Shown: positions 10,005 to 38,464, numbered from the stretch's first letter. The stretch: DNA of 64,000 nucleotides from Acidimicrobiia bacterium (GCA_027494135.1 JAOSJK010000012.1:546795-610794); one strand, 5' to 3'. Numbers and translations are program-made. Notes: generated by a model from the letters alone, not told the origin.

Positions 10005-10078
10005 CGTCTCACGCGCGTCCCGACGGGTCCGTGATCTCGCGTCCTCACTCGGCGGCGCGCTTCGGTAGCCTGACCCCA

Positions 10079-21235: not shown

Positions 21236-21463
21236 CACGCAGGCCGCGGGACGCGGGACGCAGGACGCGACCCCGAGCCGAGCGAGCACCCGCAGCGCCC
21301 TCGGGGACGACGGACCACGCCGCGCGGACCATCGGCCCTGTCATCGTTCCCGGCGGTTCGGGACCCTGAAGGAGAGCCTCGCGCCCGTCGAGCGGTCGAT
21401 GTGCGGTAGACGAGCGGTCGGCATGCGGGCGACGCCCGCCAACGAGGATGCTGGGAGGCACCT

Positions 21464-23770
21464 GTGGGAGATGCAGCGAGTGGCGCCACCGACATCCTGT
21501 GGTTCGGCGACCTGTCCGCAAGCGACGTGCCGGTCGCGGAGGCAAAGGGGCAAACCTGGGCGAGCTGACCGGGGCGGGCATGCCGGTGCCGCCCGGATTC
21601 GTCGTCGCGGCACCCGCGTACCTCGGCTCCATGGATGCCGGAGCGGTCCGGGCGGAGATCGCGCAGGTCGCCGCCGATCTCGACGTCGACGACCCGACCG
21701 AGCTCGCCACCGGCTCGGCACGCCTGGCAGAGATGGTCCGCAGCGCCGGCCTGCCGCCGGAGCTCCGGCGCCGGGTGCTCGACGCGTACCGCACGCTCGG
21801 CGACACGGCATCCGTCGCAGTCCGCTCATCTGCGACCAGTGAAGACACCGCCGACGCGTCGTTCGCCGGCATGAACGAGACGTTCACCAACGTCGCGGGC
21901 GACGACGCTCTCATCGACCGGATCGTCGACTGCTGGGCGTCGCTCCACGGCCAGAGGGCCGTCGCATACCGGCGCGGACGGGGCGTGGTCGAGGAACCCG
22001 CCATCGCAGTGGTCGTGCAGAAGATGATCGACTCCGAGCGGTCAGGGGTCATGTTCACCGCCGACCCGTCGACGGGCGACAGGGAACGGATGGTGATCGA
22101 GGGGGCGTTCGGACTCGGGGAGGTGGTCGTCGGCGGCCAGGTGGAACCCGACACCTACACGGTCGCCAAGGAGGGCCCACGCCTCCTGACCGTTCGCGTC
22201 GGCCTGAAGACGCACTTGATCGAGCGTGGACCCGACGGCACCGATCGGCGCGTCGACCTCTCGCCCGAGGACGGCGGTCGCCGCGCCCTCACAGACGAGG
22301 AGGTCCTGGATCTCGCACGCATCGGTGCGAGGGTCGAGTCGCACTACGGACGCCCGCAGGACATCGAGTGGGCGATTGCCGGCGGGCAGATCTTCATCGT
22401 GCAGAGCAGACCCATCACGACCCTCACCGAGGTGCCGGGCGAGGAGGCCGCCACGACGTCCGGTGCGCAGCTCATTCGCGGCCTCGCTGCCTCCCCCGGG
22501 CTGGCTGCCGGCCGGGTTCGCGTGGTGCGCGCGGTCGCCGACGGAGATGCGCTCCTGCCCGGCGAGATCCTCGTCGCGGAGATGACGAACCCCGACTGGG
22601 TCCCCGTGCTCCGCCGCGCCGCAGCGTTGGTCACCGACGGGGGCGGCATGACCTGTCACGCCGCGATCGTCAGCCGTGAGCTCGGAGTCCCGTGCGTCGT
22701 CGGCACGCGGAATGCGACGCAGTTGCTGCGCGACGGCGAGCTGGTCACCGTCGACGGGCGCCGTGGCGCGGTCTTCGAGGACGACAACGTCGCCGCGCTC
22801 GCGCCGGCGGCGCACGTAGGCGGCTCAGAGGATGATCGACGCGAGCACCCCCACATCGATCGAGCCGCTCGGGACTCGCCTCTATGTGAACCTCGCCATC
22901 GCAGACCACGCCGAACGCGTCGCGGCCCTGCCCGTCGACGGCGTCGGCCTGCTCCGGGCCGAGTTCATGGTCACCGACGCGCTAGGTGGTCGTCACCCCA
23001 GAGACCTCCTCGCCCACGGCGGCCGCGACGAGTTCCTCGCGAAGATGGAGGCGTCGCTCCTGCGGATCACGTCGGCATTCGCCCCGCGCCCGGTGGTCTA
23101 CAGGACCATCGACTTCCGCAGCAACGAGTTCCGCGGGCTCGCGGGGGGCGACCAGTTCGAGCCGGTCGAGGAGAACCCCATGATCGGCTACCGCGGCTGC
23201 TACCGCTACGTGCGCGAGCCCGACCTGTTCGCACTCGAGTGCGAGCTCCTCGCGCGGGTTCGGGATCAGACTCCGAACCTCCACTTGATGATCCCGTTCG
23301 TCAGGACGCTCTGGGAGCTCGAGGCGTGCCTGGAGCTAGTCGATGCGAGTCCGCTCGGCCGCCAGCACGGCCTGCATCGCTGGGTCATGGCGGAGGTACC
23401 GTCGGTTGCATACCGGATCCCCGAGTACGCGGCGCTCGGCATCGACGGCGTCTCCATCGGATCGAACGACCTCACGCAGCTGATGCTGGGCGTCGACCGC
23501 GACTCCGAGATCTGCTCCGACCTCTTCGACGAGTCCGATGCTGCCGTCCTCGACGCGATCGGCCGCATCATTGCGGCATCACGCGCCGCCGGGATCACTT
23601 CGTCGCTCTGCGGCCAGGCGCCCTCCAACAGACCCGAGTTCGCGGAGCACCTGGTGAGATTCGGCATCACCTCGATCTCCGTCAATCCCGATGCCGCCGA
23701 CCGCGCTCGTCAGGTGATCGGATCGGCCGAGAGACGCCTCCTGCTCGACGACGCCCGACACGGGGTCTAG
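21464..23770 (+). pseudogene. PEP-utilising enzyme (PEP synthase / pyruvate,water dikinase-like); two frame breaks
   Basis: A GTG at 21464 gives [17 protein letters not shown] shift near 21535 leads to [11 protein letters not shown]...SSATSEDT...[20 protein letters not shown] shift near 22830 leads into the PEP-binding TIM-barrel domain (ORF 22832..23770). Confidence 0.8.
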
Positions 23771-23778
23771 GGCTGCCG

Positions 23779-25163
23779 ATGCCGTTCAGAGACCGGCGCG
23801 ACGCAGGCAGACGGCTCGCTGCACTGCTCGGGCACCTCGCGTCGGAGCACCCCGTCGTGCTCGGGCTGCCGCGGGGTGGTGTGCCTGTCGCCTTCGAGGT
23901 CGCCCGCGCGCTCGACGCGCCTCTCGACGTCATAGTCGTCCGTAAGCTCGACTCCCGTACCAGCCGGAGCTGGCCATGGGCGCGATCGGCGAAGACGGCG
24001 TGCGGATCGTCAACGACGACCTGCGGCGCCGGGCCGGCGTCAGCGACGCCGACCTGAGTGCTGTCGAGCGTCGCGAGAGGTCCGAGCTCGAGCGTCGCGC
24101 GGAGCGCTTCCGCAGCGGCCGGGGGCCCGTAGCGATCGCCGGCCGGACGGTAATCGTCGTCGACGACGGCCTGGCGACGGGATCGACCGCGCTCGCCGCC
24201 CTGCAGGTCGCCCGCGCGCACGGCGCATCGCGCGTGGTGCTCGCCGTGCCGGTCGCGCCACCCGAGACGCTGCGCGAGATGGCACGTCACGCCGACGACG
24301 TCGTCTGCGTAGAGGCTCCGGCGAGCATGATGGCGATCGGGCCCTGGTACGACGACTTCCGTCAGACCACAGACGAGGAAGTGGTTCAGCTCCTGGCCTC
24401 AGCTCGAGGCTCCTCCGCCGGGATCTACCCGGCAGACGTCGAGAGCGACGAGTCGGAGACGGGCGCACGCCTGGCGGGCGGCGAGGAGGCTGGGCGCAAC
24501 GAGGAGGTCGACCTGGTCGTGGGCCGCGCGAGGCTCGGAGCGCACCTCGCGGTCCCGGCGCGGGCCAGAGGGCTCGTGGTCTTCGCTCACGGCAGCGGCA
24601 GCAGCAGACAGAGCCCACGCAACAAGCACGTCGCGTCGGTCCTAGCCGGAGCCGGTCTCGGCACCCTCCTGTTCGACCTGCTCACCGAGTCCGAGTCGCT
24701 CGATCGCGCCAACGTCTTCGATGTACGGCTCCTTGCGTCGCGGCTCTCCGGTGCGATCGACGCGTTGCGCTCGGACCCCGGGCTCCGCCCGTTGGCGATC
24801 GGAGCCTTCGGAGCGAGCACCGGGGCCGCCGCCGCGCTGTGGGCGGCCGGCGAACCGTCGAGCCCCATCGCCGCCGTGGTCTCCCGCGGCGGCCGACCGG
24901 ACCTCGCCGGCGCCCGCCTGGCGTACGTGCGCGCCCCCACCCTGCTCATCGTCGGCGGCGCCGACCTCGACGTGCTCGACCTGAACCGGGATGCCGCCCG
25001 CCATCTACGCTGCCCGCACAGGGTCGAGGTGGTGCCGGGGGCCACGCACCTCTTCGACGAACCCGGAACCCTCGCTGCCGCAGCATCTCTCGCACGCGAC
25101 TGGTTCGTCGCGCATCTTCCGAACCCGAGCCTCCCGTCCGGCGGAGGCGGCAGAGGCACCTGA
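23779..25163 (+). pseudogene. Phosphoribosyltransferase + dienelactone-hydrolase-like alpha/beta hydrolase fusion (Rv0571c-like architecture); one frame break
   Basis: ATG at 23779 ([14 protein letters not shown]...[10 protein letters not shown]). A one-base gap near 23949 joins it to ORF 23976..25163 (VIVVDDGLATGST, then VVFAHGSGSSR...GATHLF). Confidence 0.75.
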
Positions 25164-25257
25164 GCCCACCGCGCCCCACGCGGCCCGCCCGGCCGCGCTA
25201 CGAATGGGATCGCGGCACCGACGGCACTCTCGGCGCATACCCGGCGACCCGGACAGG

Positions 25258-25272
25258 GGTGACCTAGTGCCC
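25258..25272 (-). promoter_or_regulatory. GGG-N6-GTCACC box C (reverse orientation)
   Basis: The minus strand reads GGGCACTAGGTCACC. It sits in the 217-bp gap between the PRTase fusion and the CBS-M50 protease gene. Confidence 0.45.
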
Positions 25273-25314
25273 TGGGCGGGGAGCGTCCCGCGCGGGCAAG
25301 ATTATGTCCCTGAT

Positions 25315-25353
25315 GACCTACACAACTGCGACCTACACAACTGCGACCTACAC
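25315..25353. repeat. 15-bp tandem direct repeat x2.6 (GACCTACACAACTGC)
   Basis: Two exact copies plus a 9-nt partial third copy. The patch is relatively AT-rich and lies 28-66 bp upstream of the likely protease start. Confidence 0.9.
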
Positions 25354-25380
25354 GCCGGCGACCACACCGGTGGCAGGGAG

Positions 25381-26526
25381 TTGATCCAGGGCGTCCCTGT
25401 CGGGCGGATCCTGGGGATCCCGCTCCGCCTCGACTGGAGCCTCGGCATCATCTTCTGGCTCCTCTCGTGGGGCCTGGCGACCGGGGCGTTCCCCGACCTG
25501 GCGCCGGGCTCGTCGGAGAGCACCTACTGGGTCGCCGGCGCGTTCACGGCGGCTCTCTTCCTCGCCTCTCTCCTGACCCACGAGATGAGCCACTCCCTCG
25601 TGGCGCGCAGCTACGGGATCGAGGTCGACAACATCACCCTCTGGGTCTTCGGAGGGATAGCAACGCTGCGCGGAGAAGCAACCGAGCCGCGCGCCGACTT
25701 CCGGATAGCGATAGCCGGACCGCTGGCGAGCCTGGCCATAGCCGTCTTCTGCCTCGGCATTGCGGGGGCTCTCGACCTGGCCGGCGCGCCCGACCTGCCG
25801 ATCACGATGGCGGTCTGGCTCGGCTCGATCAACGGGATGCTCGCAGTCTTCAACCTGGCGCCTGCCGCGCCGCTCGACGGCGGCCGTATCCTGCGCGCAT
25901 GGCTGTGGAAGCGCAGGGGCGACCGCGCCAGCGCGGCCCTGAGCGCTACTCGCGCCGGTCGCTTCTTCGGGCAGGTGCTCATCGCTGCGGGCCTGGTCCA
26001 GTTCCTGATCGGCGCGGGCGTCGGGGGGCTCTGGCTCGTCTTCCTCGGCTGGTTCGTGATGACTGCGGCGCGCGGTGAGGAGACTTCGGTCCGGATAGCC
26101 CACGATCTCACCGGCGTCCGCGCCGGCGATGTCATGACACCGGAGCCAGTCGTCGCGCCCGCGACCCTCACCGTGGCCGAGCTCCTAGACGACTTCGTGC
26201 TGCAGCAACGCTGCTCGGCATTCCCGCTCGTCGAGCCCGACGGCGAGGTGAGCGGCCTCGTGACGCTCACCAGGCTCAAGTCGCTCTCTGCGGACGCCCG
26301 CCGGACGATGGCCGTGCGCGACGTGGCGTGGCCCCTCGCGCAGGTACCGACCGCTACGCCATCCGATCCACTGGTAGACCTCGTCGCACGGCTCGGCGAA
26401 GCCGGAGACGGCCGCGCACTGGTGTTCGACGGCACGAAGCTAGTCGGAATCATCTCACCGACCGACGTGTCGAGGGCGCTGCAGATCGCCGAGCTACGTC
26501 GCCGCGGCGAGATGCGACCGAGATGA
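25381..26526 (+). CDS. M50 site-2 metalloprotease with tandem C-terminal CBS domains (Rv2625c-like)
   Basis: HEMSHSLVA (HExxH) and NLAPAAPLDGGRIL motifs, then two CBS repeats. The start is uncertain. TTG 25381 gives the family-typical N-terminus MIQGVPVGRILGIPLRLDWS; GTG 25267 is the alternative. Confidence 0.8.
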   Translation: MIQGVPVGRILGIPLRLDWSLGIIFWLLSWGLATGAFPDLAPGSSESTYWVAGAFTAALFLASLLTHEMSHSLVARSYGIEVDNITLWVFGGIATLRGEATEPRADFRIAIAGPLASLAIAVFCLGIAGALDLAGAPDLPITMAVWLGSINGMLAVFNLAPAAPLDGGRILRAWLWKRRGDRASAALSATRAGRFFGQVLIAAGLVQFLIGAGVGGLWLVFLGWFVMTAARGEETSVRIAHDLTGVRAGDVMTPEPVVAPATLTVAELLDDFVLQQRCSAFPLVEPDGEVSGLVTLTRLKSLSADARRTMAVRDVAWPLAQVPTATPSDPLVDLVARLGEAGDGRALVFDGTKLVGIISPTDVSRALQIAELRRRGEMRPR

Positions 26527-26559
26527 CCGAGTATGAGTCCAGCCGACGAAGGAGACTTC

Positions 26560-27653
26560 ATGCTGCCGTCCGAACTGGAGAAGCTCGCTCGCACACACGC
26601 GTTCCCTGCGGTGACGCTTCTGCTTCCGACACAGCGTGAGCGGCCCGGCAACGCGGAGGACCGGCTCCGTCTCCGCCATCTCGTAGACCGTGCCACGGAA
26701 GAGCTGCTCCGAGGGTTCGACCGACGCGAGGTCGCCCCGTTGGTGGAGCGCCTGAACACCGCCGCTGCCGAGGTCGATTTCTCGCATCCGGGCTCCGGCC
26801 TCGCGATCCTTGCCACCACCGACGAGTCACACGTGTTCGCGGTGCCGTTCGCGCTGCCCGAGCGCGTCGTGGTGAACGAGCGCTTCGCGGTGCGCGACCT
26901 CCTCGTCGGCGTGCATCGGATGCCGCGCTATCGCGTGCTCGTGCTGTCGGCGAAGAAGAGCCGGCTGCTGGAAGGCTCGGGAACGGACCTAGCCGAGTCT
27001 CGATCCGGAGCGTTCCCGGTCGAGGTCGAGCCGCCCCGCGAGGAGGACACCCCACACAAGGATCTGCCCATCCACGAGTCCCAGCGAGAAGAGGGCTACC
27101 GCTTCGTGTTCCGCGCCGTTGACCGGGCACTCGACGAGATCGATGCCGCCAGTCCTCTGCCGGTAGTTCTCGTCGGAGTCGAGCGCGACCTCTCGTTCTT
27201 CCGTGAGGTCACACGCCACGGACGCTCCATAGTCGGCCAGGTGGCAGGTAACCACGTCGCCGATTCGCCTGCGGAGCTCGGCAGGCTCGTCGCTCCCGCG
27301 ATCGAGGCGCACACGGCAGCCGAGGCGTCCGCGGCCGTGGCCGAGCTCAGGGAGGCCGTCGGAACGGGACGTGCCTCGAGCGGCATCAACGACGTGTTCG
27401 CGCTCGCTCACGAAGGGCGTGGTAGGAGGCTGGTCGTCGAGGAGGACTACCGCTATCCTGCTCACATTTCCGGGGACGGCCGGTCCCCGTAGGCGACGCC
27501 GACGCGCCTGCCGGCGGCGTCGAGGGAACCGACGTGGTCGACGCGGTCGAGGTCGTCACGGAGGCCGTGCTCTCCACCGGGGGCGAGATCATCTTCGTTC
27601 CGACGGGCGCCCTCGCTCAGCACGGTGCCATCGGCCTACTGCTCCGCTACTGA
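26560..27653 (+). pseudogene. eRF1/Pelota-like (bacterial archaeo-eukaryotic release-factor-like, Rv2629-like) protein; one frame break
   Basis: ATG at 26560 has an AAGGAG RBS. ORF 26533..27492 stops at 27490. A +1 correction in the C4 run 27485-27488 continues as PVGDADAP...GGEIIFVPTGALAQHGAIGLLLRY* (stop 27651-27653). The family call is by pattern only. Confidence 0.55.
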
Positions 27654-27754
27654 GTGCTCCGCAGTCGACCGGTCGGTTGCACGGGGAGCGGCACCGCCTC
27701 GCAACCGAAGGATCTACTCTGCGGGGTCACACGGCTCTCCGAGAGGCTCTGCGC

Positions 27755-28927
27755 GTGAAAGTGGATGGCGCCGCCTCGGGTCCAGTGGTGCTGGACACCG
27801 CCGGCCTCGCGGCCGCAGTCGAGACGCTGATCGGTGACGGCTGGTCGGTGATCGCCCCGACGGTGCGCGACGGGGCAATGGTCCACGACGTGATCGAGTC
27901 GGTAGCGGACCTGCCTACCGGGTGGGGCGACAAGCAGGAGCCGGGCCGCTACCGACTGCGGCGGCGAGACGACTCCGCTCGCTTCGGCTACGCAGCGCCC
28001 GCGCAGTCGTGGAAGCGCCTCCTCTTTCCGCCGCGCACGACGCTGTGGCGGGCGCACCGTCCCCCGCCCGGGTCAGCTGATCGCGACGCCGGCGACTTCG
28101 TCGTGCAGGTCGCCACTGCCACGCCCAGGTACGCCTTCCTCGGCGCCCGCGCCTGCGAGGTGCGCGCGATCGAGATCCAGGACAGGGTCTTCCTGGGCGG
28201 CGCCCACACCGACCCCGGCTATCGGGCAGCGCGGGAGTCCGCCCTGGTGATCGCCGTCAACTGCAGCTCACCGGCGGACACCTGCTTCTGCTCATCGATG
28301 GACGCCGGACCACGTGTTGCATCCGGGGCCGACGTCGTACTGACAGAGGTGGCAGAGCCGCAGCACCGCGAGCCCTGGTACCTGGCAGAGGCCTTCTCAG
28401 ACCGCGGCGCAGCGCTGCTCCGACGCGTGCCGTCGGCCGCCGCGACCCCCGAGGCGATCGACGCGGCCGACGCGGTGGTCGCGAACGCGGCCGCTCACAT
28501 GGGGCGCGAGATGCCCGACGTCGATCTCCACGAGCTCCTGTCGGAGTCGCTCGAGCACCCCCGCTGGGACGACGTGGCCGAGCGCTGCCTGGCGTGCACG
28601 AGCTGCACCCTCGTCTGCCCGACCTGCTTCTGCAGCTCCGTCGAGGACGTGACCGACCTGACCGGGACGGAGGCACGCCGAGACCGCCGCTGGGCATCCT
28701 GTTTCGAGCTCGACCACTCCTACCTGCACGGCGGCAGCATTCGCTCCGGTATCCGCTCCATGTACCGGCAGTGGCTGACACACAAGCTCGGTACGTGGTT
28801 CGACCAGTTCGGGACATCGGGCTGCGTCGGCTGCGGGCGCTGCGTCACATGGTGCCCCGCAGGGATCGACATCACCGAGGAGATCCGCGCGATAGCCGGA
28901 CCCCACCTGCAGGAGGTGACGCCTTGA
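27755..28927 (+). CDS. hyhB: Group 3b [NiFe]-hydrogenase beta subunit-like 4Fe-4S protein (AsrA/HydB-like)
   Basis: GTG at 27755 within ORF 27371..28927. Cys clusters CLACTSCTLVCPTCFC and CVGCGRCVTWCP are present. It is the first gene of a translationally coupled chain. Confidence 0.75.
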   Translation: MKVDGAASGPVVLDTAGLAAAVETLIGDGWSVIAPTVRDGAMVHDVIESVADLPTGWGDKQEPGRYRLRRRDDSARFGYAAPAQSWKRLLFPPRTTLWRAHRPPPGSADRDAGDFVVQVATATPRYAFLGARACEVRAIEIQDRVFLGGAHTDPGYRAARESALVIAVNCSSPADTCFCSSMDAGPRVASGADVVLTEVAEPQHREPWYLAEAFSDRGAALLRRVPSAAATPEAIDAADAVVANAAAHMGREMPDVDLHELLSESLEHPRWDDVAERCLACTSCTLVCPTCFCSSVEDVTDLTGTEARRDRRWASCFELDHSYLHGGSIRSGIRSMYRQWLTHKLGTWFDQFGTSGCVGCGRCVTWCPAGIDITEEIRAIAGPHLQEVTP

Positions 28928-29391
28928 CGAAGCGGACGATCCGTGACCTGCTCGGCGATCATCCGTTCTTCGCCGACCTCGACCCGGAATACCTCGACCT
29001 GATCGCCGGCTGCGGGCAGAACGTGGTGTTCGCAGCCGATACGCCCATCGCCCGGGAGGGTGAGCCGGCTGACTTCTTCTATGTGCTGCGCGAAGGCCGC
29101 GTCGCCCTCGACGTCCACGAGCCGGCCCGGGGGCCGATCGTCGTGGCGACACTCTCTCCGGGCGACGTCCTCGGGTGGTCGTGGCTCTTCGCGCCGTACC
29201 GCTGGCGCTTCGACGTGCGTGCGCTGGAGCCCGTCCGCGCCGTGGCGCTCGACGGCGTCTGCCTGCGCGGCAAGTGCGACGCCGATCCCCGCCTCGGATA
29301 CGACCTGGTCCACCGATTCGCCGGAATCATGGTCGCCCGTCTCGAGTCGACCAGGCTGCAGCTCCTGAACGTGTACGGCTGGCCCGCGTGA
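28924..29391 (+). CDS. Cyclic-nucleotide-binding (cNMP/Crp-type) domain protein embedded in the hydrogenase operon
   Basis: The TTG at 28924 overlaps the upstream stop (TTGA). The 155-aa product shows FFADLDPEYLDLIAG...REGEPADFFYVLREGRVAL...GDVLGWSWL. There is no HTH output domain. Confidence 0.7.
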   Translation: MTKRTIRDLLGDHPFFADLDPEYLDLIAGCGQNVVFAADTPIAREGEPADFFYVLREGRVALDVHEPARGPIVVATLSPGDVLGWSWLFAPYRWRFDVRALEPVRAVALDGVCLRGKCDADPRLGYDLVHRFAGIMVARLESTRLQLLNVYGWPA

Positions 29392-30236
29392 CAGCGACCG
29401 CCACCGCCACGGGTCCCATGGCCCCCATGGTCCCGCACCGTTACCGAGTCGTCTCGCGCCATACCGAGACCTCCGACACCGTGACGATCCACGTCGAGCC
29501 GCTCGGCGACCCGATCGACGCGCCGCGGCCCGGTCAGTTCGCGATGCTCTGGGCCTTCGGCATCGGTGAGGTCCCGATCTCGTTCTCCGGTCTTCCCGGC
29601 GACGGGCGGCTCGGCCACACCATCCGCGCAGTCGGGACCGCCACCTCCGCCCTCGCGGCATCGGAGCCTGGAACGGTCATAGGCGTACGCGGCCCCTTCG
29701 GCAACGGCTGGGACGTCGGCGACGCCGACGGCGGCGACGTCATGATCGTCGCCGGGGGTCTCGGGCTCGCACCGCTACGCCCCGCCGTAGACGCCGTCCT
29801 CGCAGAGCGTGATCGGTACCGCCGCGCCGTGCTGCTGATCGGCACGCGCTCCCCCGACGATCTGATGTTCCACGACGACCTCGCTCGCTGGCGCGGCCGT
29901 CTCGACCTCGACGTGCAGGTAACCGTCGATGCGGCCGACACCGGCTGGCACGGCGACGTCGGCGTCGTCACCACCCTCATCGGTCGCGTGCCGGTCGAAC
30001 CGGGCAACACGTTGGCACTCGTCTGCGGACCCGAGGTGATGATGCGCTTCACCACCCGTTCGCTGATCGACCGCGGCCTCGATGCCGAACGCATCCGCGT
30101 CTCCCTGGAGCGCAACATGCAGTGCGGGGTCGGGCACTGCGGGCACTGCCAGCTCGGACCCGAGCTGGTCTGTCTCGACGGACCCGTCTTCGCCTGGAGT
30201 CGCGTCGCAGCCCAGTCCGCGGTCCGCGAGCGATGA
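29388..30236 (+). CDS. hyhG: Group 3b hydrogenase gamma subunit-like FAD/NAD(P)-binding oxidoreductase with a C-terminal 2Fe-2S motif (AsrB/HydG-like)
   Basis: The GTG at 29388 overlaps the upstream stop (GTGA). It has a ferredoxin-reductase-type fold pattern ([22 protein letters not shown]) and a C-terminal [10 protein letters not shown]. Confidence 0.75.
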
Positions 30237-31024
30237 GCACCGACAAGCCCTCCGTCGCCGTGTGGAAGTTCGCCTCGTGCGACGGCTGTCAGCTCACGCT
30301 CCTCGACTGCGAAGACGAGCTCCTCGAGGTCGCCGGCGAGGTCGCGCTGGCGTACTTCCTCGAGGCGGGTCTCACCTCCGTGCGTGGCTCGTACGCACTC
30401 TCGCTCGTCGAGGGATCGATAACGACTGCCGACGACGCACGCCGCATCCAGGAGGTCCGACAGGCCTCCCGGACGCTCGTGACGATCGGCGCGTGCGCCA
30501 CCGCGGGAGGGATCCAGGCACTCCGCAACTTCTCCGAGGTCGACGAGTTCCGCTCCATCGTCTACGCCCACCCGGAGTTCGTCGAGACGCTCGGTACGTC
30601 GACACCCATCTCGGCTCACGTTCGCGTCGACCTCGAGCTGAGGGGGTGCCCGATCTCGAAGGCACAGCTCGTCGAGACGATCAGCGCCTTCCTGCACGGG
30701 CGGCGGCCCAACATCTCCGGCCGGAGCGTCTGCTCGGAGTGCAAGGAGCGTGGCAACGTCTGCGTCACCGTCGCGGGCGGAACGCCGTGCCTGGGCCCGA
30801 TCACGCACGCAGGGTGCGAGGCCCTCTGTCCCGCCTACCACCGCGGGTGCTACGGCTGCTACGGCCCCGCGGACACGACGAACGCACCGTCGCTGGTAGT
30901 GAGACTCCGCGAGGGAGGCATGGCCGACGACGACATCGTGCGTGTCCTACGCACCTTCAACGCCTACGCCGACGACTTCCGCGACGCGAGCGAGGCCGTC
31001 GCCGCAGGCAAGGGGGCGGAGTGA
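30233..31024 (+). CDS. hyhS: [NiFe]-hydrogenase small (delta) subunit, NuoB/20-kDa-like
   Basis: ATGA overlap at 30233. The sequence shows [24 protein letters not shown] and C-terminal Cys clusters ([22 protein letters not shown]). Confidence 0.8.
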
Positions 31025-32326
31025 CCCACCGAAGCCCCGCGAGCCGCACGCTGGAGGTCAAGGCCCTCGCCCGCGTGGAGGGCGAGGGCGCGATGTTCGT
31101 CGAGATCCGCGACGGAGCGGTTCACGACGTCCAGCTGCGCATCTACGAGCCACCCCGCTTCTTCGAGGCGTTCCTACGAGGTCGCAGCTACACCGAACCA
31201 CCCGACATCACGGCCCGGATCTGCGGGATCTGTCCCGTCGCGTATCAGATGAGTGCAGTGCAGGCCATCGAGGCCGCGTGCGGGATCACAGTGGACGGAG
31301 CGCTGCGCGACCTGCGCCTGCTGCTGTACTTCGGCGAGTGGATCGAGAGCCATGCTCTCCACGTGTACATGCTTCACGCCCCCGACTTCCTCGGCTACGA
31401 GAGCGCTATCGCCCTCGCCGCCGACCACCGTCCGATCGTCGAGCGAGGTCTTGCCCTCAAGAAGACCGGGAACGACCTGGTCGACGTAATCGGAGGGCGC
31501 GCAGTGCACCCCCGTCAATGTGCGCGTCGGTGGCTTCTACCGGGTGCCGACCAAGCGCGAGCTGCAGCCCCTGTCCGAGAGCCTCCGGCGGGCGCGTGAT
31601 GCCGCCCACGCGACCGTCACGTGGGTCGCCGGCTTCGACTTCCCCGACTTCGAGCACGACCACGAGCTGGTCGCGCTTCGCCACCCCGAGGAGTACGCGA
31701 TCCTCGACGGCCGCCTGGTCTCCACCCTCGGCCTCGATGCGGGGCCCGACGAGTACGAAGGTCACTTCGCAGAGGAGCACGTCGAGCGTTCCACCGCGCT
31801 CCATTCCCGGATCCTCGAGCGGGGCCACTACCTGGCCGGGCCCCTGGCGCGCTACTCCCTCAACTCCGACAAGCTCGCTCCCGTCGCCCGTGAGGCCGCC
31901 GCGGAGGCAGGCCTGGGTACCGAGTGCCGCAACCCCTTCCGCAGCATCGTCGTGCGGAGCGTCGAGATCCTGCACGCCTGCGACGAGGCGCTCCGCGTGA
32001 TCGAGCGCTACGAGCCACCCGGCTCCCCTGCGGTCGAGGTAGCCCCGCGTGCTGGTGCGGGCTGTGGCTGGAGCGAGGCTCCGCGCGGCCTTCTCTGGCA
32101 TCGCTACGAGCTCGACGCCGCCGGCGTCATCCAGGATGCTCGGATCGTGCCACCGACCTCGCAGAACCAGCCGACTATCGAGCACGACCTCTGGCACTTC
32201 GTGGAGTCACACCTCCACCTCGATGACGACGAGCTGCGGATCAGGTGTGAGCAGGCAATCCGGAACTACGACCCGTGCATCTCCTGTGCCACGCACTTTC
32301 TCGACCTCGTCGTGGAGCGCTCGTGA
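31021..32326 (+). pseudogene. hyhL: [NiFe]-hydrogenase large (alpha) subunit, group 3b-like; one frame break
   Basis: GTGA overlap at 31021. The N-terminal Ni-binding motif [10 protein letters not shown] and the C-terminal DPCISCATH are both present. The frame breaks in the C5 run 31509-31513, joining ORF 30082..31599 to ORF 31520..32326. Confidence 0.85.
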
Positions 32327-32886
32327 GGGGCGGCGGGCTCCGGGCGGCCATTCGAGGTCACGGCGGCAACTCCCCCGCGAGCGGTGCGCGCGGAGAACCG
32401 TCCCCACGCATCGTCGTGATCGGGATCGGGAATGCCTTCCGCGGCGATGACGGCGCCGGGCTCGCAGTCGTCCGCGCAGCACGGTCTCTACTGCCGGCGA
32501 CAGTCGAGGTGATCGAGCTCGACGGCGAACCGGCGCGGCTCGTGGAGTCATGGGACGGCGCCGCGGCTGCCTTCGTCGTCGATGCGGTGCGCAGCGGCTC
32601 TTCCGCCGGCTCCGTCCATCGCTACGACGCCACCGAGGAGCGACTACCCCGATGGGAACCGTCCGGCGGCAGTCACTCGCTCGGCGCTGCCGCCGCCGTC
32701 GACCTCGCGCGCTCCCTCGACCGCCTACCAGCTCATCTGATCGTCTACGGCGTCGAGGGCGCCGACTTCGACAACGGGGTCGGCCTGACTCCGGCGGTGG
32801 CGTCGGCTGTGCCTCAGGCCGCGACCCGCATCGCGGAAGAGGCCGGAGCCGTCCTGCACCGCCTCGAGACGCGCGGGGGGCGGTGA
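32323..32886 (+). CDS. Hydrogenase maturation endopeptidase (HyaD/HybD/HycI family)
   Basis: GTGA overlap at 32323. The sequence shows [16 protein letters not shown] and GGSHSLG motifs. Confidence 0.8.
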
Positions 32887-32889
32887 ACC

Positions 32890-33135
32890 GTGTGCCTCTC
32901 ACACGCCGGGCGAGTTTTCGAGGTCGACGCGGCGAGGCACGAAGCCGTCGTCGATGTCGACGGCGGCCTCCGCACCGTCTCCCTGGCCGTCCTGACCCTC
33001 GACGGTCACGAAGTTGCCGTCGGCGAGTGGGTGCTCGTCCACACCGGCTTCGCGATGGAGGTGCTCGACCCCGCTGCCGCCGCCGACCTCGTTGCACTTC
33101 ATCGCGAAGTCACTGCGTTCGGGGAGACTGGTTGA
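32890..33135 (+). CDS. hypC: Hydrogenase assembly chaperone HypC/HupF
   Basis: 81 aa. It starts M-C-L (GTG 32890) and has the typical WVLVHTGFA motif. Confidence 0.85.
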   Translation: MCLSHAGRVFEVDAARHEAVVDVDGGLRTVSLAVLTLDGHEVAVGEWVLVHTGFAMEVLDPAAAADLVALHREVTAFGETG

Positions 33136-33139
33136 GACC

Positions 33140-34132
33140 ATGGACAAGGAAGGGCACCGCATGAGTCGTCCGGTCCCGACACGGCGCGCCGCTTCGTACG
33201 GGCTCGCACTCGCGTTCTTCGCAGCGCTCGTGAGCGGAGTGTCCGTCTTCGTGAACTCGTACGGCGTGAAGCGGGTCCCGAACCCCACCGTCTACACGAC
33301 GGCGAAGAACCTGGTCGCCGCCGTCATCCTGCTCGGCCTGCTTGTGGTTGCCTCCCGCGCGAGGCCCGGTGAGGGCTGGTCCCGACCATCGACGAGACGC
33401 GAGTGGACAGGGCTCGCCGCCGTGGCGCTTCTCGGCGGGAGCATCCCGTTCGTGCTCTTCTTCGAGGGGATCGCCCGCGCATCGTCCACCGACGCCCAGT
33501 TCGTCCACAAGACGCTGGTCGTGTGGGTGGCGCTCCTGGCCGTCCCGATCCTCGGCGAGCGCGTCGGCGGCCTCCATGTCGCGGCGGTCGCCCTGCTGGT
33601 AGTGGGGCAGGCAGAGATCGTCGGCGGGATTCCGACCATCGGCGAGAGCGGCCGAGGGGAGGCGATGATCCTCGCCGCGACCCTCCTCTGGTCCGTCGAG
33701 GTGGTGGTCGCGAAGCGCCTGCTCACCTCCGTCTCGCCGGCGACCCTCGCGGCGGCGCGGATGGCAGCGGGGAGCCTCGTGCTCGTGGCATGGCTCGGCG
33801 CAACGGGGCGGATCGACGACCTCGTCGGGCTGTCGGCCTCGGGCTGGGGGTGGGCGGCGCTCACCGGCACCCTGCTCACGCTCTACGTCGCTACCTGGTA
33901 CTCCGCGCTCGCCCGCGCACAGGCCGTCGACGTCACCGCGGTGCTCATGGCCGCCGTGCTGGTCACGTTCGCCCTGGACTCCGTGGTGAACGGCAGGGCA
34001 CTGGCCCCGCAGCGCACCGGTCTGCTCGTGATCCTCGCCGGCAGCGCAGTAGCGGGCACGGCGGCGTGGATCACGGCCCGGCGCGCCGCGCCGGCGGAGG
34101 TCGGGAGCGCGCCAGGTGCGGCCTCCCCATGA
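33140..34132 (+). CDS. EamA/DMT-family transporter
   Basis: ATG at 33140 (alternative 33161) within ORF 33014..34132. About ten hydrophobic segments form two EamA-like halves. Confidence 0.75.
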   Translation: MDKEGHRMSRPVPTRRAASYGLALAFFAALVSGVSVFVNSYGVKRVPNPTVYTTAKNLVAAVILLGLLVVASRARPGEGWSRPSTRREWTGLAAVALLGGSIPFVLFFEGIARASSTDAQFVHKTLVVWVALLAVPILGERVGGLHVAAVALLVVGQAEIVGGIPTIGESGRGEAMILAATLLWSVEVVVAKRLLTSVSPATLAAARMAAGSLVLVAWLGATGRIDDLVGLSASGWGWAALTGTLLTLYVATWYSALARAQAVDVTAVLMAAVLVTFALDSVVNGRALAPQRTGLLVILAGSAVAGTAAWITARRAAPAEVGSAPGAASP

Positions 34133-34923
34133 GACGACCGGAGCCGGGCGCTGCAGCCGGAGACGACGGCGCGATCCGCTTCGCGCGCTACGCCTATCCG
34201 CCCAACGCGCTGGGGCTCTGCGGGCCCGACGACTACGGTGCGCTCCTGGAGTACGGCGCCGGAGGCATCTCCGACGGTGGGCTGCAGCAGCTCGCCCGGT
34301 GCTTCGAAGGTGCATGGCCGTACCTGGAGCTGATCGCCGGGGCGAACGGCATCGACGACCCCCTCGACGCGCGCGTCGTCGAGGCCTACTGGACGGGCAA
34401 CAGCCTCCTGGCCGGCGTGACCCCGCTCGTGCTCGGTTCCTCGCTCGAGGAGCGCTTCCGCGGCCCCGCGGGGAGAGACTGGAGCCGCCTGGCAGCGGCG
34501 ATCCCGCACGCACCGCTCCCACATCACGGCTTCCACGTCTTCGCCGTCTACCCGTGGACGGGACTGCTTCGCAGCGGGGCGGCCGGTGAGGCGCTGCGCG
34601 TCCTCGACCGTTGTCGCATCCGGTGGGGCTCCGTCGTCTCCGTCGAGAGTGCAACTGCCGTCGTGCGATCGCGTCCGCTGCGCTGGGACGGCTGCAAGCT
34701 CTCCCTCGACGCGTCGGTACCGGAGACGGCCATCACGGCCGATCGCGGTTACGGCCTTGCCGGGCCGATCGCACCGGGCGACCACGTCGCTCTGCACTGG
34801 GACTGGGTGTGCGAACGTCTCACTCCGGCTCGACTCCGGTGGCTGCGCCGCCTCACGGCCTCGCAGCTCGACCTCGTGAACGGTCGCCTCGCACACTCCC
34901 CCGCGGCGGCCGTCCTGGGATAG
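34129..34923 (+). CDS. Conserved hypothetical protein, translationally coupled to the EamA gene
   Basis: ATGA overlap at 34129. The 264-aa product has ordinary composition (FARYAYPPNALGLCGPDD...). I cannot name a family with confidence. Confidence 0.6.
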   Translation: MRRPEPGAAAGDDGAIRFARYAYPPNALGLCGPDDYGALLEYGAGGISDGGLQQLARCFEGAWPYLELIAGANGIDDPLDARVVEAYWTGNSLLAGVTPLVLGSSLEERFRGPAGRDWSRLAAAIPHAPLPHHGFHVFAVYPWTGLLRSGAAGEALRVLDRCRIRWGSVVSVESATAVVRSRPLRWDGCKLSLDASVPETAITADRGYGLAGPIAPGDHVALHWDWVCERLTPARLRWLRRLTASQLDLVNGRLAHSPAAAVLG

Positions 34924-34958: not shown

Positions 34959-35939
34959 ATGCTCCGCGCCTGGCGGTACACCGAGGGGGCTCCCGGCAGG
35001 ACCGACGTCGCCGCCGACGCGCTCACGGGCCCGCGCCCGGCCGGGTCGTTCCTCTGGGTCGACATCGAGCACCCGGAGACCGGCGAGATCGAGCACGCGG
35101 CGGAGGCGCTCGGCGTCCATCACATCGCGGCCGAGGACCTGGCCCACGCCGGACAGCGCACCAAGCTCGAGCACTACTCCGACCACCGCCACGTCGCCGT
35201 GCACGACATGGCCCTCGACGAAGCAGGCGTGCTCGCCGACGGGGAGATCGACATCGTCTTCGGCGACGGGTGGCTGCTCACCGTCCGCCACTCGCGCGAT
35301 GGGCTCGACGCGGCGCCGATCGACTCTGTCGTGGAGCGCTTCGAGCGCCAGCGGGTGGAGCATGGCTCGAGCGACGAGGGCTTCGCGATCTGGTCGATAC
35401 TCGACGACGTCGTCGACCGGTACTTCGTCCTTCTCGACGCCGTGGACGACTACCTCGACGGAATCGAGGAGGCTGTCTTCGCTCCGGACTCCGCCGATCA
35501 CCCGCCGCAGGCGGCTTTCGCGCTGCGACGGACCCTGGTGGCGTTCCGTCGCACCGCCTCGCCGATGCGCGAAGTCGTCTCGGCTCTGCTGCGACGCGAA
35601 GCACCCGAGATCGGCGACGCTGCGATACCGCACCTGCAGGACGTGTACGACCACGTGCTCCGTGCGCTCGACCTCCTCGAGTCTCAGAGGGAGCTGCTGT
35701 CCGGCCTACTGGAGGCCCAGCTCTCCGTTGCGTCGATGCGGATGAACCGCGTGATGAAGGCGACGTCGTCGTGGGGCGCGATCCTCGTCGTGAACACCCT
35801 CATCACCGGCGTGTACGGCATGAACTTCCGGCACATGCCCGAGCTGCACTGGTACCTCGGCTATCCCCTGGCGCTCGCAGCCATGGCCGTCGCCACGGTC
35901 GTCCTGTACGTGATGTTCCGGCGGCGCGACTGGCTGTGA
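34959..35939 (+). CDS. corA: CorA-family divalent metal (Mg/Co/Ni) transporter
   Basis: ATG at 34959 within ORF 34611..35939. The signature YGMNF is followed by two C-terminal TM helices. Confidence 0.85.
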   Translation: MLRAWRYTEGAPGRTDVAADALTGPRPAGSFLWVDIEHPETGEIEHAAEALGVHHIAAEDLAHAGQRTKLEHYSDHRHVAVHDMALDEAGVLADGEIDIVFGDGWLLTVRHSRDGLDAAPIDSVVERFERQRVEHGSSDEGFAIWSILDDVVDRYFVLLDAVDDYLDGIEEAVFAPDSADHPPQAAFALRRTLVAFRRTASPMREVVSALLRREAPEIGDAAIPHLQDVYDHVLRALDLLESQRELLSGLLEAQLSVASMRMNRVMKATSSWGAILVVNTLITGVYGMNFRHMPELHWYLGYPLALAAMAVATVVLYVMFRRRDWL

Positions 35940-35969: not shown

Positions 35970-38414
35970 TCACCTCTCGGTGCGTCGAACCGAGCGACGC
36001 GTCGCGATGACCCCGCCGAAGCGTGGCGTGCGTTCGGCCGCCGGGAGCCTGTGCTGCTGCGCAGTCCAGCCGACCTCGAGCAGGACGACCGCCGACGCCG
36101 CCACCACGACGCCCCACACGAGCGCCTCCCACTCCGGGAGGTCCAGGGCATAGAAGGTGCGCAGGTCGGGGACGGCGAGTATGACGACGAATGCCGCGAC
36201 CATCCACGTCACCAGGCTCGCCCTCCAACCCGTGATCGGTCTGGCGAGGAGCACCAGGATCCACAGGCCGACGACCAGCAGCACGAGGGTCGCCGTGGTA
36301 CGTGACTCGTCGAGCCCCACTCCGGCCCCCACCCTCGCGGTCGCGTACGCACCGAAGGTCGCCGTCGACGCCACCATGCCCACGGGCAGTGCGAACTTGA
36401 GGACACGCCTCACGAACCCGGGCACGTAGCGGCGTGGGTTCGGGGCGAGCGCCAGGAAGAACGCGGGGATGCCGATCGAGAGGCTGCTGACGATGGTGAG
36501 GTGCCTCGGCAGGAACGGGTACGGCCAGCGCGCCACTCCGACTGCTATGGCCAGGAGCATCGCGTAGACGGTCTTGGTGACGAAGAGGTTCGCCACCCGC
36601 TCGATGTTCGCGATGACGCGACGCCCCTCTGCGACCACACCGGGCATCGTCGCGAACTTGCCGTCGAGCAGGACGATCTGGGCGACCGCGCGGGTCGCCG
36701 GAGCCCCACTACCCATCGCGATGCCGATGTCGGCGTCCTTCAGCGCCAGCGCATCGTTGACGCCGTCGCCCGTCATCGCCACGACGTGTCCGCGCGACTG
36801 CAGCGCAGCGACCATCGCCCGCTTCTGGTGCGGCGTGACCCGCCCGAAGACGCTGTGGGTCTCCAGCACCTCGGCCAGAGCCTCCATCTCGTCGGGTAGC
36901 TCGCGAGCGTCGTAGCCCCCGTCAGCGTCGGGGAGTCCGACCCGGCGCGCAACCGCCGCCACCGTGAGGGGGCTGTCGCCCGAGATCACCTTCAGGGCCA
37001 CGCCCTGCTCGGTGAAGTAGCGCAACGTGTCCGCTGCGTCCGGCCTGACCTTCTCCTCGAAGAGCACCAGCGCGGTAGGGCTCAGTCCTGACGGCAGTCG
37101 CTCCCCATCGAGCGCCTCGCCCGTTCGAGCGAGCAGCAGCACGCGCCTCCCCTCGGATGCGAGCGCCTCGGCGCGCCTGCGTACCGAATCCCAGTCACCG
37201 TCCGGCCCGGTGACCATCTCCGGCGCGCCGATGACCCAGGTTCCCCTTTCTCCGAAGGAGGCGGCGCTCCACTTCCGCGCCGACGAGAACGGCACCGACC
37301 CGGTCCGCTCCCACCCCTCGGGGGCGGGGAACGCCGTGCAGAGAGCCGACATGGTCGCATTGCGGTGCTCGTCCGACGCGAGGGCGCCGAGCGCAGCGGC
37401 CACCGGGTCGGGGTCGGTGAAGGCCTCGATCTCGTCGAACGCGATGCTCCCCTCGGTCAGGGTCCCGGTCTTGTCGAGGCACACGACGTCGACGCGTGCG
37501 AGGCCCTCGACCGCCGGCAGCTCCTGCACCAGGACCTTGCGGCGCGCGAGCGAGACGGCCGCGACGGCGAAGGCAAGGCTCGTGAGCAGGACGAGCCCCT
37601 CTGGGACCATCGCCACCACGCCTGCCACGACGCCGGATACCGCCTCGCGCCAGCCGGAATGCGCTCGGAACTGGCTGACAGCGAGGAGGGCCGCCGTAGG
37701 AAGGAGCGCGTAGGTCACGAACCGCAGGATCGTGTTGAGCCCCTCCGCGAGCTCGGTTCGGACGAGCGTGAATCGTCGTGCCTCCGCCGCGAGCCTGCAG
37801 GCATATGCGTCGGCGCCCACCCCGGTCGCCTGGAACCGCCCGTGGCCGGCCACGACGAAGCTCCCCGAGAGCACCCTCTCGTCGGGCCCCTTGTGAACGG
37901 GGTCCGACTCGCCGGTGAGCAGGGACTCGTCGACCTCGAGGCCCTCGGCCGTGTGTACCGTGCCGTCGGCCGGAACCTGGTCGCCGGTACGCAGCTCGAG
38001 GAGGTCGTCGAGGACCACCTCCTCGACGGCCATCTCGCGCACGATCCCGCCCCGCACGACACGCGCGCGCGGCGCATTGAGCACCGCGAGACGGTCGAGG
38101 GTCCGCTTCGCCCTCAGCTCCTGCACTATGCCGATCAGGGCGTTGGAGACGAGAACGATTCCGAAGAGAGCGTCCTGGATCGGCCCAACCACGAGGATGA
38201 TGGCGAGCATCGACCCCAGAATCGCGTTGAAGCGCGTGAACACGTTCGCCTTCACGATCTCGGTGAGAGTGCGACTCGAGCGCCTACCGGTGTCGTTGAC
38301 CTCGCCGCGCTCGATCCGCTCCTGCACCTCGGCATCGGAGAGCCCGTCGTGGCCCGTCACCCACTCGGAGGCGTCCCGACCGTCGCTCTCGATCCTCGGC
38401 GTGCCCACTGCCAT
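35970..38414 (-). CDS. Cation-translocating P-type ATPase (P2/HAD-IC type, CtpF-like)
   Basis: ATG at 38414, intact 814 aa. Motifs: TGES, CLDKTGTLT, MTGDGVNDALALK. Confidence 0.85.
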   Translation of the reverse strand: MAVGTPRIESDGRDASEWVTGHDGLSDAEVQERIERGEVNDTGRRSSRTLTEIVKANVFTRFNAILGSMLAIILVVGPIQDALFGIVLVSNALIGIVQELRAKRTLDRLAVLNAPRARVVRGGIVREMAVEEVVLDDLLELRTGDQVPADGTVHTAEGLEVDESLLTGESDPVHKGPDERVLSGSFVVAGHGRFQATGVGADAYACRLAAEARRFTLVRTELAEGLNTILRFVTYALLPTAALLAVSQFRAHSGWREAVSGVVAGVVAMVPEGLVLLTSLAFAVAAVSLARRKVLVQELPAVEGLARVDVVCLDKTGTLTEGSIAFDEIEAFTDPDPVAAALGALASDEHRNATMSALCTAFPAPEGWERTGSVPFSSARKWSAASFGERGTWVIGAPEMVTGPDGDWDSVRRRAEALASEGRRVLLLARTGEALDGERLPSGLSPTALVLFEEKVRPDAADTLRYFTEQGVALKVISGDSPLTVAAVARRVGLPDADGGYDARELPDEMEALAEVLETHSVFGRVTPHQKRAMVAALQSRGHVVAMTGDGVNDALALKDADIGIAMGSGAPATRAVAQIVLLDGKFATMPGVVAEGRRVIANIERVANLFVTKTVYAMLLAIAVGVARWPYPFLPRHLTIVSSLSIGIPAFFLALAPNPRRYVPGFVRRVLKFALPVGMVASTATFGAYATARVGAGVGLDESRTTATLVLLVVGLWILVLLARPITGWRASLVTWMVAAFVVILAVPDLRTFYALDLPEWEALVWGVVVAASAVVLLEVGWTAQQHRLPAAERTPRFGGVIATRRSVRRTER

Positions 38415-38464
38415 CCGACGAACGTAGCCTTCCCTCGGACGCGACCGGAGCCAAGGGAGGACCC

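Follow-up and report, generated by a model that had tools for sequence, protein, structure and literature searches.

A widespread gene for a cyclic-nucleotide-binding-fold protein between the beta and gamma genes of group 3b [NiFe]-hydrogenase operons

Group 3b [NiFe]-hydrogenases are among the most widespread hydrogenases of soil and sediment bacteria; aerobes are believed to endure hypoxia with their help, releasing reductant as H2. Two described systems bear closely on the locus reported here. In the Hyh operon of Mycobacterium smegmatis, the beta gene (MSMEG_3931) is followed directly by the gamma gene (3930) and then by 3929, 3928 and 3927 (delta, alpha and protease), with no gene between beta and gamma (PMC2799521). 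In the soluble hydrogenase of Cupriavidus necator, HoxHYFUI2, the HoxI subunit is a dimer which is readily lost from the HoxFU diaphorase (PMC3189943); a passage of a later paper, citing Burgdorf 2005, states that HoxI is thought to supply NADP(H) binding (PMC12319191). We analysed a 64,000-nt stretch of DNA from Acidimicrobiia bacterium (GCA_027494135.1 JAOSJK010000012.1:546795-610794), hereafter the window; all positions refer to this whole stretch, one strand. It carries a group 3b operon in which, unlike in M. smegmatis, the gene for a stand-alone protein of the cyclic-nucleotide-binding (CNB) fold lies between the beta (hyhB) and gamma (hyhG) genes. The gene turned out to be common at this position, its product appears to have lost the contacts by which such domains hold cyclic nucleotides, and it probably serves the enzyme directly.

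An original prediction, made from the sequence of the window alone, had presented the CNB gene as an insertion not known as a standard subunit. The identical 155-residue protein is on record from a metagenome-assembled genome (Acidimicrobiia bacterium), homologues of ∼155 residues form ∼1000 clusters at the 90% identity level, and 209 proteins matched with E<=1e-30 in a library of 50%-identity representatives. A scan of genomes, limited to one genome per species, returned 286 relatives, of which the best 80 loci were inspected. These 80 belonged to Actinomycetota (Acidimicrobiia, Thermoleophilia, Gaiellales, Streptosporangiaceae and Jiangellales), Chloroflexota, Vicinamibacteria (Acidobacteriota), Verrucomicrobiia, Trueperaceae, Ignavibacteria/Bacteroidota and Gammaproteobacteria. 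The order beta, CNB, gamma on one strand was detected by tblastn with the window proteins in every one of them (80/80), followed by the small subunit, large subunit and protease genes wherever the contig went on. The same order was present in the three plasmid or chromid loci examined; it is annotated on a Burkholderia thailandensis plasmid and on pDK1 of Rhodococcus DK17. Such recurrence argues that the arrangement is not due to chance. Spacing was tight: the CNB start overlapped the beta stop or lay within 10 nt of it in 81 of 83 loci, and the gamma start lay within 10 nt of the CNB stop in 73 of 81. The CNB protein is conserved to the same degree as its neighbours, being on average 56.8% identical to its window counterpart, against 52.4% for beta and 53.2% for gamma. 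The locus is a further example of a widespread operon type, and the CNB gene itself is widespread.

Common as the gene is, it has not been characterised: in the literature searched we found passing mentions only, so that of the suggestion that such genes might prove both common and already characterised, the first half alone held. It is listed in the group 3b cluster of R. equi 103S (PMC13332983), and in a methanotroph it goes by the name HoxI, borrowed by analogy from the soluble hydrogenase (PMC12319191). JGI and a Frankia paper annotate it as a CRP/FNR regulator, a "small transcriptional regulator" in Frankia.

The gene is nevertheless dispensable, being missing from some group 3b operons, namely those of M. 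smegmatis and of one Streptomyces. In the latter, Streptomyces sp. NBC_01340 (L086, 5084-7124), beta and gamma are separated by 61 nt that hold no CNB gene. The group 3b operon of Streptomyces BHT-5-2 possesses it; with a related Streptomyces (L087) that carries the gene, L086 forms a natural presence/absence pair. Among 15 plasmid or chromid records with a close HyhL, the CNB gene adjoined in 12, as judged by operon inspection or hit coordinates, a sample that is not an unbiased estimate of the share of all group 3b operons that carry the gene. The other three were NBC_01340 and two Streptomyces whose sole CNB match lay 9-18 kb away by hit coordinates. Members of the wider family also take other forms. 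Proteins of two to five tandem related CNB domains were found (P0241, P0242 and P0347 of the representative library, and L092), one of which adjoins an RND metal-efflux system, and P0321 is a fusion of a HAD-hydrolase with a CNB domain. These architectures indicate that the wider family is used outside hydrogenases.

The AlphaFold 2 (AF2) model of the CNB protein (mean predicted local distance difference test, pLDDT, 91.8) showed a CNB beta-roll, preceded by short helices at the N-terminus and ending in a C-terminal helix of 30 residues (C-helix). This helix ends at residue 151 of 155 and PF00027 was the only domain found in the protein, leaving no helix-turn-helix; the prediction of a stand-alone cyclic-nucleotide-binding fold devoid of DNA-binding output was confirmed on both counts. 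Foldseek placed PDB entry 3mdp first (33% identity, root-mean-square deviation 1.3 Å over 128 columns), followed by the sensor domains of CRP and GlxR, with a probability of 1.00 to many CNB domains.

The phosphate-binding cassette of this fold is degenerate. When the protein was aligned by HMMER to cyclic GMP-dependent protein kinase (PKG), the canonical Gly-Glu fell on G84-W85 and the canonical Arg-Thr-Ala on W94-R95-F96. A MAFFT alignment with CRP put the canonical Arg on position 95, which is unconstrained among family members (R, H, Q, S, N, M or V). Across 82 syntenic loci, position 85, where the ribose 2'-OH-binding Glu is expected, was Trp in 70, Ala in 7 and Val in 3, and never Glu; no invariant Arg was found. 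What is conserved instead is a near-invariant, Trp-rich motif, G-W-S-W-L-x-x-P-[YH]-[RK]-W-x-F-D: in 72 homologues G84, S86, W87 and P91 were invariant, and W85, W94, F96 and D97 were conserved in at least 90%. Judged by these alignments, the CNB protein has lost the canonical cyclic-nucleotide contacts, and direct control of the hydrogenase by cyclic AMP (cAMP) or cyclic GMP (cGMP) is unlikely. The prediction that the protein gives direct, nucleotide-dependent control or assembly of the enzyme thus survives in part: a direct action on the enzyme is probable, whereas the cAMP/cGMP sensor is not upheld, a lack of nucleotide-binding residues on alignment having been named beforehand as grounds to reject it. 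The cAMP-independent regulatory subunits of trypanosomal protein kinase A (PKA) show that altered cassettes can still bind other purines.

A further line of evidence came from gene fusions. A 542-residue protein (P0305) comprising Fer4_22 and cNMP_binding domains aligns end to end with the window beta subunit and then the CNB protein. Such beta::CNB fusions, 539-546 residues long, form 12 distinct 90%-identity clusters from ENA, JGI and Logan data, which are 50-80% identical to the alignment reference P0393. P0393 itself was recovered on contigs of 148 and 153 kb from two independent assemblies, inside a group 3b operon in which the fusion gene is followed by a second CNB paralogue, which is free, and then by gamma, small, large, HycI and HypF. 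The divergence between the 12 clusters and the agreement of the two assemblies rule out an assembly artefact. The fused domain of P0393 keeps the motif (GWSW..PPYKW.FD), and the free copy has diverged. The N-terminal portion of one naturally occurring fusion superimposed on the beta subunit of Pyrococcus furiosus soluble hydrogenase I (SHI; 9nf0_B) with a TM score of 0.85. Retention of the fusion through such divergence speaks for a CNB domain that functions while joined to HyhB. In addition, the presence of two CNB domains per operon in the P0393 lineage agrees with dimerisation via the C-helix, in the manner of CRP and of HoxI2.

In L088/L089 (6001-8184), a HyhB-CNB fusion of 542 residues is followed by a diverged free CNB paralogue with the sequence GYCW..PPFQCRFD. 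The called start of the free paralogue looks too far downstream, since an upstream in-frame TTG would give a full-length domain. One CNB::gamma fusion (P0277) is a candidate only, and a 720-residue protein (P0402) from a noisy contig is suspect.

The explanation we favour, and consider reasonably probable, is that the CNB protein is a dispensable accessory subunit, probably dimeric, of the HyhB/HyhG diaphorase module, and that its Trp-rich loop binds a non-cyclic ligand or serves for docking and in this way tunes the enzyme. The protein would be made in step with the enzyme, would dimerise via its long C-helix and, as a dimer, would dock on the beta/gamma electron-input (diaphorase) module. 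The Trp-rich loop would have one of two tasks: to hold a nucleotide-type, non-cyclic ligand, NAD(P)H being a guess based on precedent, or to form a protein interface. By doing so the CNB protein might tune how the enzyme is activated, which cofactor it uses or how stable it is, a role that can be likened to that of HoxI as the I2 component of the C. necator soluble hydrogenase. Four elements of this proposal are inferences: that the protein physically binds the enzyme where it is unfused, that it dimerises, which ligand it may hold and how activity may be affected.

Several observations weigh against this explanation. No docking insert was evident in the beta and gamma subunits of one Streptomyces operon with the gene compared with one without it. 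More distant members of the CNB family were found outside hydrogenase operons. The AF2 model of fusion P0393 (pLDDT 84.8, predicted TM score 0.67) had a linker of low confidence and no readable interface, and hydrogenase-complex chains were absent from the top 50 structural matches to the model of the CNB protein. The P. furiosus SHI holoenzyme (9nez, 9nf0) was matched via its alpha and beta chains only. In the literature searched for a characterised group 3b CNB subunit, we found no biochemical or structural work on its presence in purified enzyme. HoxI also makes an imperfect precedent. Like the window CNB protein, it is a small CNB-only protein encoded in the operon of a cytosolic bidirectional hydrogenase, but the two share 24% identity over 97 residues (pairwise E 1e-5), and HoxI keeps the cassette Gly-Glu and is without the Trp motif and the cysteines of the window protein. 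Its gene (L005:14836-15339, in hoxFUYHW-I) stands after the protease gene, whereas the window gene stands between the diaphorase genes; its partner is the Complex-I-type HoxFU, whereas the partner proposed here is the AsrAB-type HyhBG. HoxI was not among the plasmid tblastn matches listed at E<=1e-3 (30 of 87 records). Orthology with HoxI was ruled out on sequence, motif and operon position, and the differences point to an analogy within one superfamily, not to homology of function.

A bolder form of the accessory-subunit proposal is tentative, and we regard it as rather doubtful. It holds that most bacterial group 3b hydrogenases have a genuine fifth subunit in the form of a Trp-rich CNB homodimer, the re-targeted pocket of which would bind a non-cyclic metabolite reporting redox or energy state (such as NAD(P)H, ADP-ribose or a nucleoside). 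Binding would gate electron transfer between the NAD(P)H/FAD site of HyhG and the Fe-S chain of HyhB, so that fermentative H2 evolution under hypoxia would be under allosteric control on the enzyme itself. The four-subunit enzymes of P. furiosus and M. smegmatis would then be exceptions among bacteria.

Of the alternatives to an accessory subunit, the one that survives best, while still unlikely, is that of a maturation or assembly factor for beta and gamma which is absent from the mature enzyme; it might act in Fe-S or FAD insertion, or hold beta until gamma docks. Embedding of the gene in an operon that also encodes two maturation factors, the protease and HypC, agrees with such a role, as does its dispensability in some lineages, and a loose association of the HoxI kind would suit a transient partner too. 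The long-diverged covalent fusions to HyhB speak against it: a stable fusion implies that mature beta retains the domain in the lineages concerned. Neither does a conservation equal to that of the structural subunits favour a maturation factor, nor the overlapping position of the gene between structural genes, which suggests synthesis in subunit-like amounts.

The cysteines of the CNB protein raise another alternative, a clade-specific redox or O2 sensor that would operate through a thiol or metal site formed by C30, C113 and C118; the cluster cysteines of FNR offer a parallel. In the same 72 close homologues C30 and C113 were invariant and C118 was conserved in at least 90%, and the three residues were kept in 80-81 of the 82 syntenic loci. 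They are encoded at 29011-29013, 29260-29262 and 29275-29277, the sequence AGCG ending helix A and CLRGKC lying in helix B. The operon-encoded CNB proteins of Rhodococcus DK17 and Streptomyces BHT-5-2, however, possess none of the three, and all three occur together in 49 of 130 wider representatives, with many partial patterns among the others. A triad as patchy as this is not an obligatory metal site, and a standard cluster needs more than three ligands. The triad may be a thiol or metal feature particular to one clade; that it accounts for the protein as such a sensor seems to us quite improbable.

It is less probable still that the protein is a truncated CRP/FNR-type transcription regulator controlling hyh via a partner protein. 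The closest characterised folds are indeed the sensor domains of CRP, GlxR and DNR, and the JGI and Frankia annotations name it accordingly. Against this stand the lack of a helix-turn-helix beyond the C-helix, the location of the gene always within the structural block and not beside it, and the fusion to an Fe-S subunit in one clade. Least probable of all is a true cAMP/cGMP receptor switching the hydrogenase on a cyclase signal, for although the PF00027 match is significant, the CNB fold intact and a class III cyclase encoded in the window, the Glu is replaced, the phosphate-binding Arg aligns with W94 (PKG) or with variable position 95, the Trp-rich motif is conserved in place of the contacts, and the cyclase gene is 18 kb off on the other strand with no linkage seen.

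The operon itself consists of seven consecutive co-directional open reading frames (ORFs) within DNA of ∼70% G+C. These seven chained genes and the five 4-nt start/stop overlaps between them (TTGA at 28924, GTGA at 29388, ATGA at 30233, GTGA at 31021 and GTGA at 32323) were located by sequence inspection exactly where they had been predicted. The predicted order and identity of the genes, from beta through the 155-residue protein, gamma, small and large subunits to endopeptidase and HypC, likewise matched the Pfam and NCBIfam domain content (Table 1).

Table 1. Features of the group 3b hydrogenase operon (27755-33135, plus strand) in window coordinates
Feature	Position	Strand	Evidence
hyhB, beta subunit, AsrA/HydB-like Fe-S protein, diaphorase module, 390 aa	27755..28927	+	PF17179 Fer4_22, 100 bits; NCBIfam sulfhyd_HydB, 2.4e-37; same gene called in independent assembly
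Stand-alone CNB-fold (cNMP) protein, 155 aa	28924..29391	+	PF00027 cNMP_binding, 52 bits, residues 35-116; AF2 model
Degenerate phosphate-binding cassette, CNB residues 84-97, GWSWLFAPYRWRFD, family hallmark	29173..29214	+	Conservation in 72 homologues
Long C-terminal helix of CNB protein, residues 122-151, equivalent of CRP dimerisation helix	29287..29376	+	DSSP on AF2 model; Foldseek matches to CRP/GlxR sensor domains
hyhG, gamma subunit, AsrB/HydG-like FAD/NAD(P)-binding, [2Fe-2S], 282 aa	29388..30236	+	PF00175, PF10418; NCBIfam sulfite_red_B, 4.6e-55, sulfhyd_HydG, 3.8e-42
hyhS, small (delta) subunit, 263 aa	30233..31024	+	PF01058; NCBIfam sulfhyd_HydD, 8.3e-47
hyhL, large (alpha) subunit, 434 aa after removal of extra C	31021..32326	+	NCBIfam sulfhyd_ShyA, 4.2e-79; best PDB match 9nez_D; RICGIC, DPCISCATH
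CCCCC run with one surplus C, apparent frameshift	31509..31513	+	CCCC in L002
Large-subunit C-terminal maturation endopeptidase, HycI/HyaD type, 187 aa	32323..32886	+	PF01750; TIGR00072, 4e-31
hypC, maturation chaperone, 81 aa, N-terminal Met-Cys	32890..33135	+	PF01455, 65.7 bits; TIGR00074

Assignment to group 3b, with a beta-gamma-delta-alpha composition, was borne out by NCBIfam, PDB matches and operon content. The best NCBIfam matches of all four structural subunits were to the sulfhydrogenase (group 3b) families, sulfhyd_HydB/ShyB, HydG/ShyC, HydD/ShyD and ShyA/HydA. In phmmer searches of the PDB, the large subunit was closest to the alpha subunit of P. furiosus SHI (9nez_D, E 1.4e-64) and to the cytosolic hydrogenase of T. 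kodakarensis (5yxy, 2.7e-64), whereas Mvh (6.7e-49), Frh (1.8e-42) and the NAD-reducing soluble hydrogenase (1.1e-40) came well behind. By these matches it lies nearer to the group 3b prototypes than to groups 3a, 3c, 3d, 1 or 2, and not outside group 3b. On this affiliation, the hyhBGSL product is predicted to be NAD(P)-linked.

In the window, hyhL is split over two frames (ORFs 30082-31599 and 31520-32326), and the original prediction had referred to a repaired large subunit. Deletion of one C from the CCCCC run restored an uninterrupted product of 434 residues, which contains RICGIC, DPCISCATH and RVEGEG. Both Ni-Fe ligand motifs are in one frame once the surplus C is removed, which confirms the two predicted Ni-binding motifs. 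In L002, an independently produced Logan assembly of that same DNA, the run is CCCC; L002 is otherwise identical over 4840 nt and carries hyhL called intact as a 434-residue NiFeSe_Hases protein. A real or programmed frameshift was ruled out by this contig, with its one C fewer and intact gene. Comparison with a second independent contig (L001) uncovered two more 1-nt deletions in the window, at 23949 and 27471. They break a phosphoribosyltransferase ORF (461 residues in L001) and a baeRF family 3 ORF (364 residues in L001, 319 in the window). Since hyhL is intact in L002 and two further indels separate the window from L001, the break in hyhL is attributed to a homopolymer-type assembly error. 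Three indels (23949, 27471 and 31509) within ∼10.7 kb suggest an unpolished long-read assembly.

The large subunit reads RVEGEG, which had been pointed out as a departure from the R-x-EGH of most [NiFe] large subunits. RVEGEG was present in 116 of the 120 closest large-subunit homologues, and the alpha subunit of P. furiosus SHI has ARVEGKG aligned to the ARVEGEG of the window. Absence of the His is therefore a trait of the group, and the motif is ruled out as an anomaly. With frameshift and RVEGEG explained, the locus is, as far as its sequence tells, an ordinary, intact operon for a cytosolic NAD(P)-linked group 3b [NiFe]-hydrogenase with its own protease and HypC.

Genes upstream of the operon encode a phosphoenolpyruvate-utilising enzyme of the pyruvate phosphate dikinase (PPDK) type, a phosphoribosyltransferase, an M50 protease with CBS domains and a protein of baeRF family 3 (bacterial eRF1-like, PF18845, 126 bits). 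The last of these (26561-27655; L001 3636-4730) is directly upstream on the same strand. Downstream of hypC lie genes for an EamA transporter (33140-34132), a DUF6390 protein (34129-34923; PF19927, 307 bits) and CorA (34959-35939), as well as a P-type ATPase on the minus strand (neighbourhood segments 21448-26527 and 35970-38474). The presence of PPDK-like, phosphoribosyltransferase, M50/CBS and P-type ATPase genes recalls the content of the mycobacterial hypoxia (DosR) regulon. This likeness stays an impression, because DosR-like palindromes were not detected beyond chance (6 matches, with 8.5 expected). Neither a sigma-70-like promoter nor an intrinsic terminator was found in 26400-33600.

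An adenylate cyclase had also been placed at 8931-10004. The class III cyclase domain was confirmed (PF00211, 49 bits, residues 243-397), with no Pfam match in the N-terminal half of the protein. Counted from the first start codon the ORF is longer (8931-10169, minus strand), and a link to the operon was not sustained at this distance (∼18 kb) and orientation. A gene for a 786-residue VanW and PG_binding_4 protein (9815-12175) is divergent from the cyclase ORF and overlaps its upstream end on the opposite strand.

Taken together, these results leave little that is peculiar to the window and shift the interest to a CNB-like protein that is common, probably bound to the enzyme and as yet without characterisation, and that can be approached experimentally by way of the fusion clade and the Trp motif. 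Understanding of group 3b hydrogenases rests on four-subunit prototypes, and most bacterial operons in the surveyed sample have a fifth, strongly conserved gene. Should the CNB protein prove to be a subunit or to gate the enzyme allosterically, current views of the choice between NADH and NADPH, of activation and of control in vivo would need revision, and heterologous expression for biotechnology should include the CNB gene.

Beyond HoxI, four groups of known systems invite comparison. The cAMP-independent PKA regulatory subunits of trypanosomes (6hyi, 6hyq), which are among the fold matches of the CNB protein, have altered cassettes that bind other purine nucleosides; they differ from it in lineage and context, which are unrelated, and in their cassette substitutions. 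The sensor domains of CRP/FNR proteins (M. tuberculosis CRP, GlxR and DNR) share with it the beta-roll and a long C-helix for dimerisation, whereas the window protein is without both a DNA-binding domain and the canonical cyclic-nucleotide contacts. Gmet_1532 of Geobacter metallireducens, the structural-genomics target of entry 3mdp, is the best sequence match (E 8e-12) and is likewise a stand-alone CNB protein; it shares G-x-S-x-L..PY in the cassette region and is without the three tryptophans and the cysteines of the window protein. As to the hydrogenases themselves, the characterised prototypes have no CNB gene as a fifth member, as the locus tags show for M. smegmatis, with P. furiosus SHI compared by its alpha and beta chains. 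SHI and soluble hydrogenase II (SHII) of P. furiosus and Hyh of M. smegmatis have the same set of alpha, beta, gamma and delta subunits as the window operon, and the group 3b prototypes share with it the Ni-binding motifs, an RVEG[EK]G-type motif near the N-terminus and a protease of their own.

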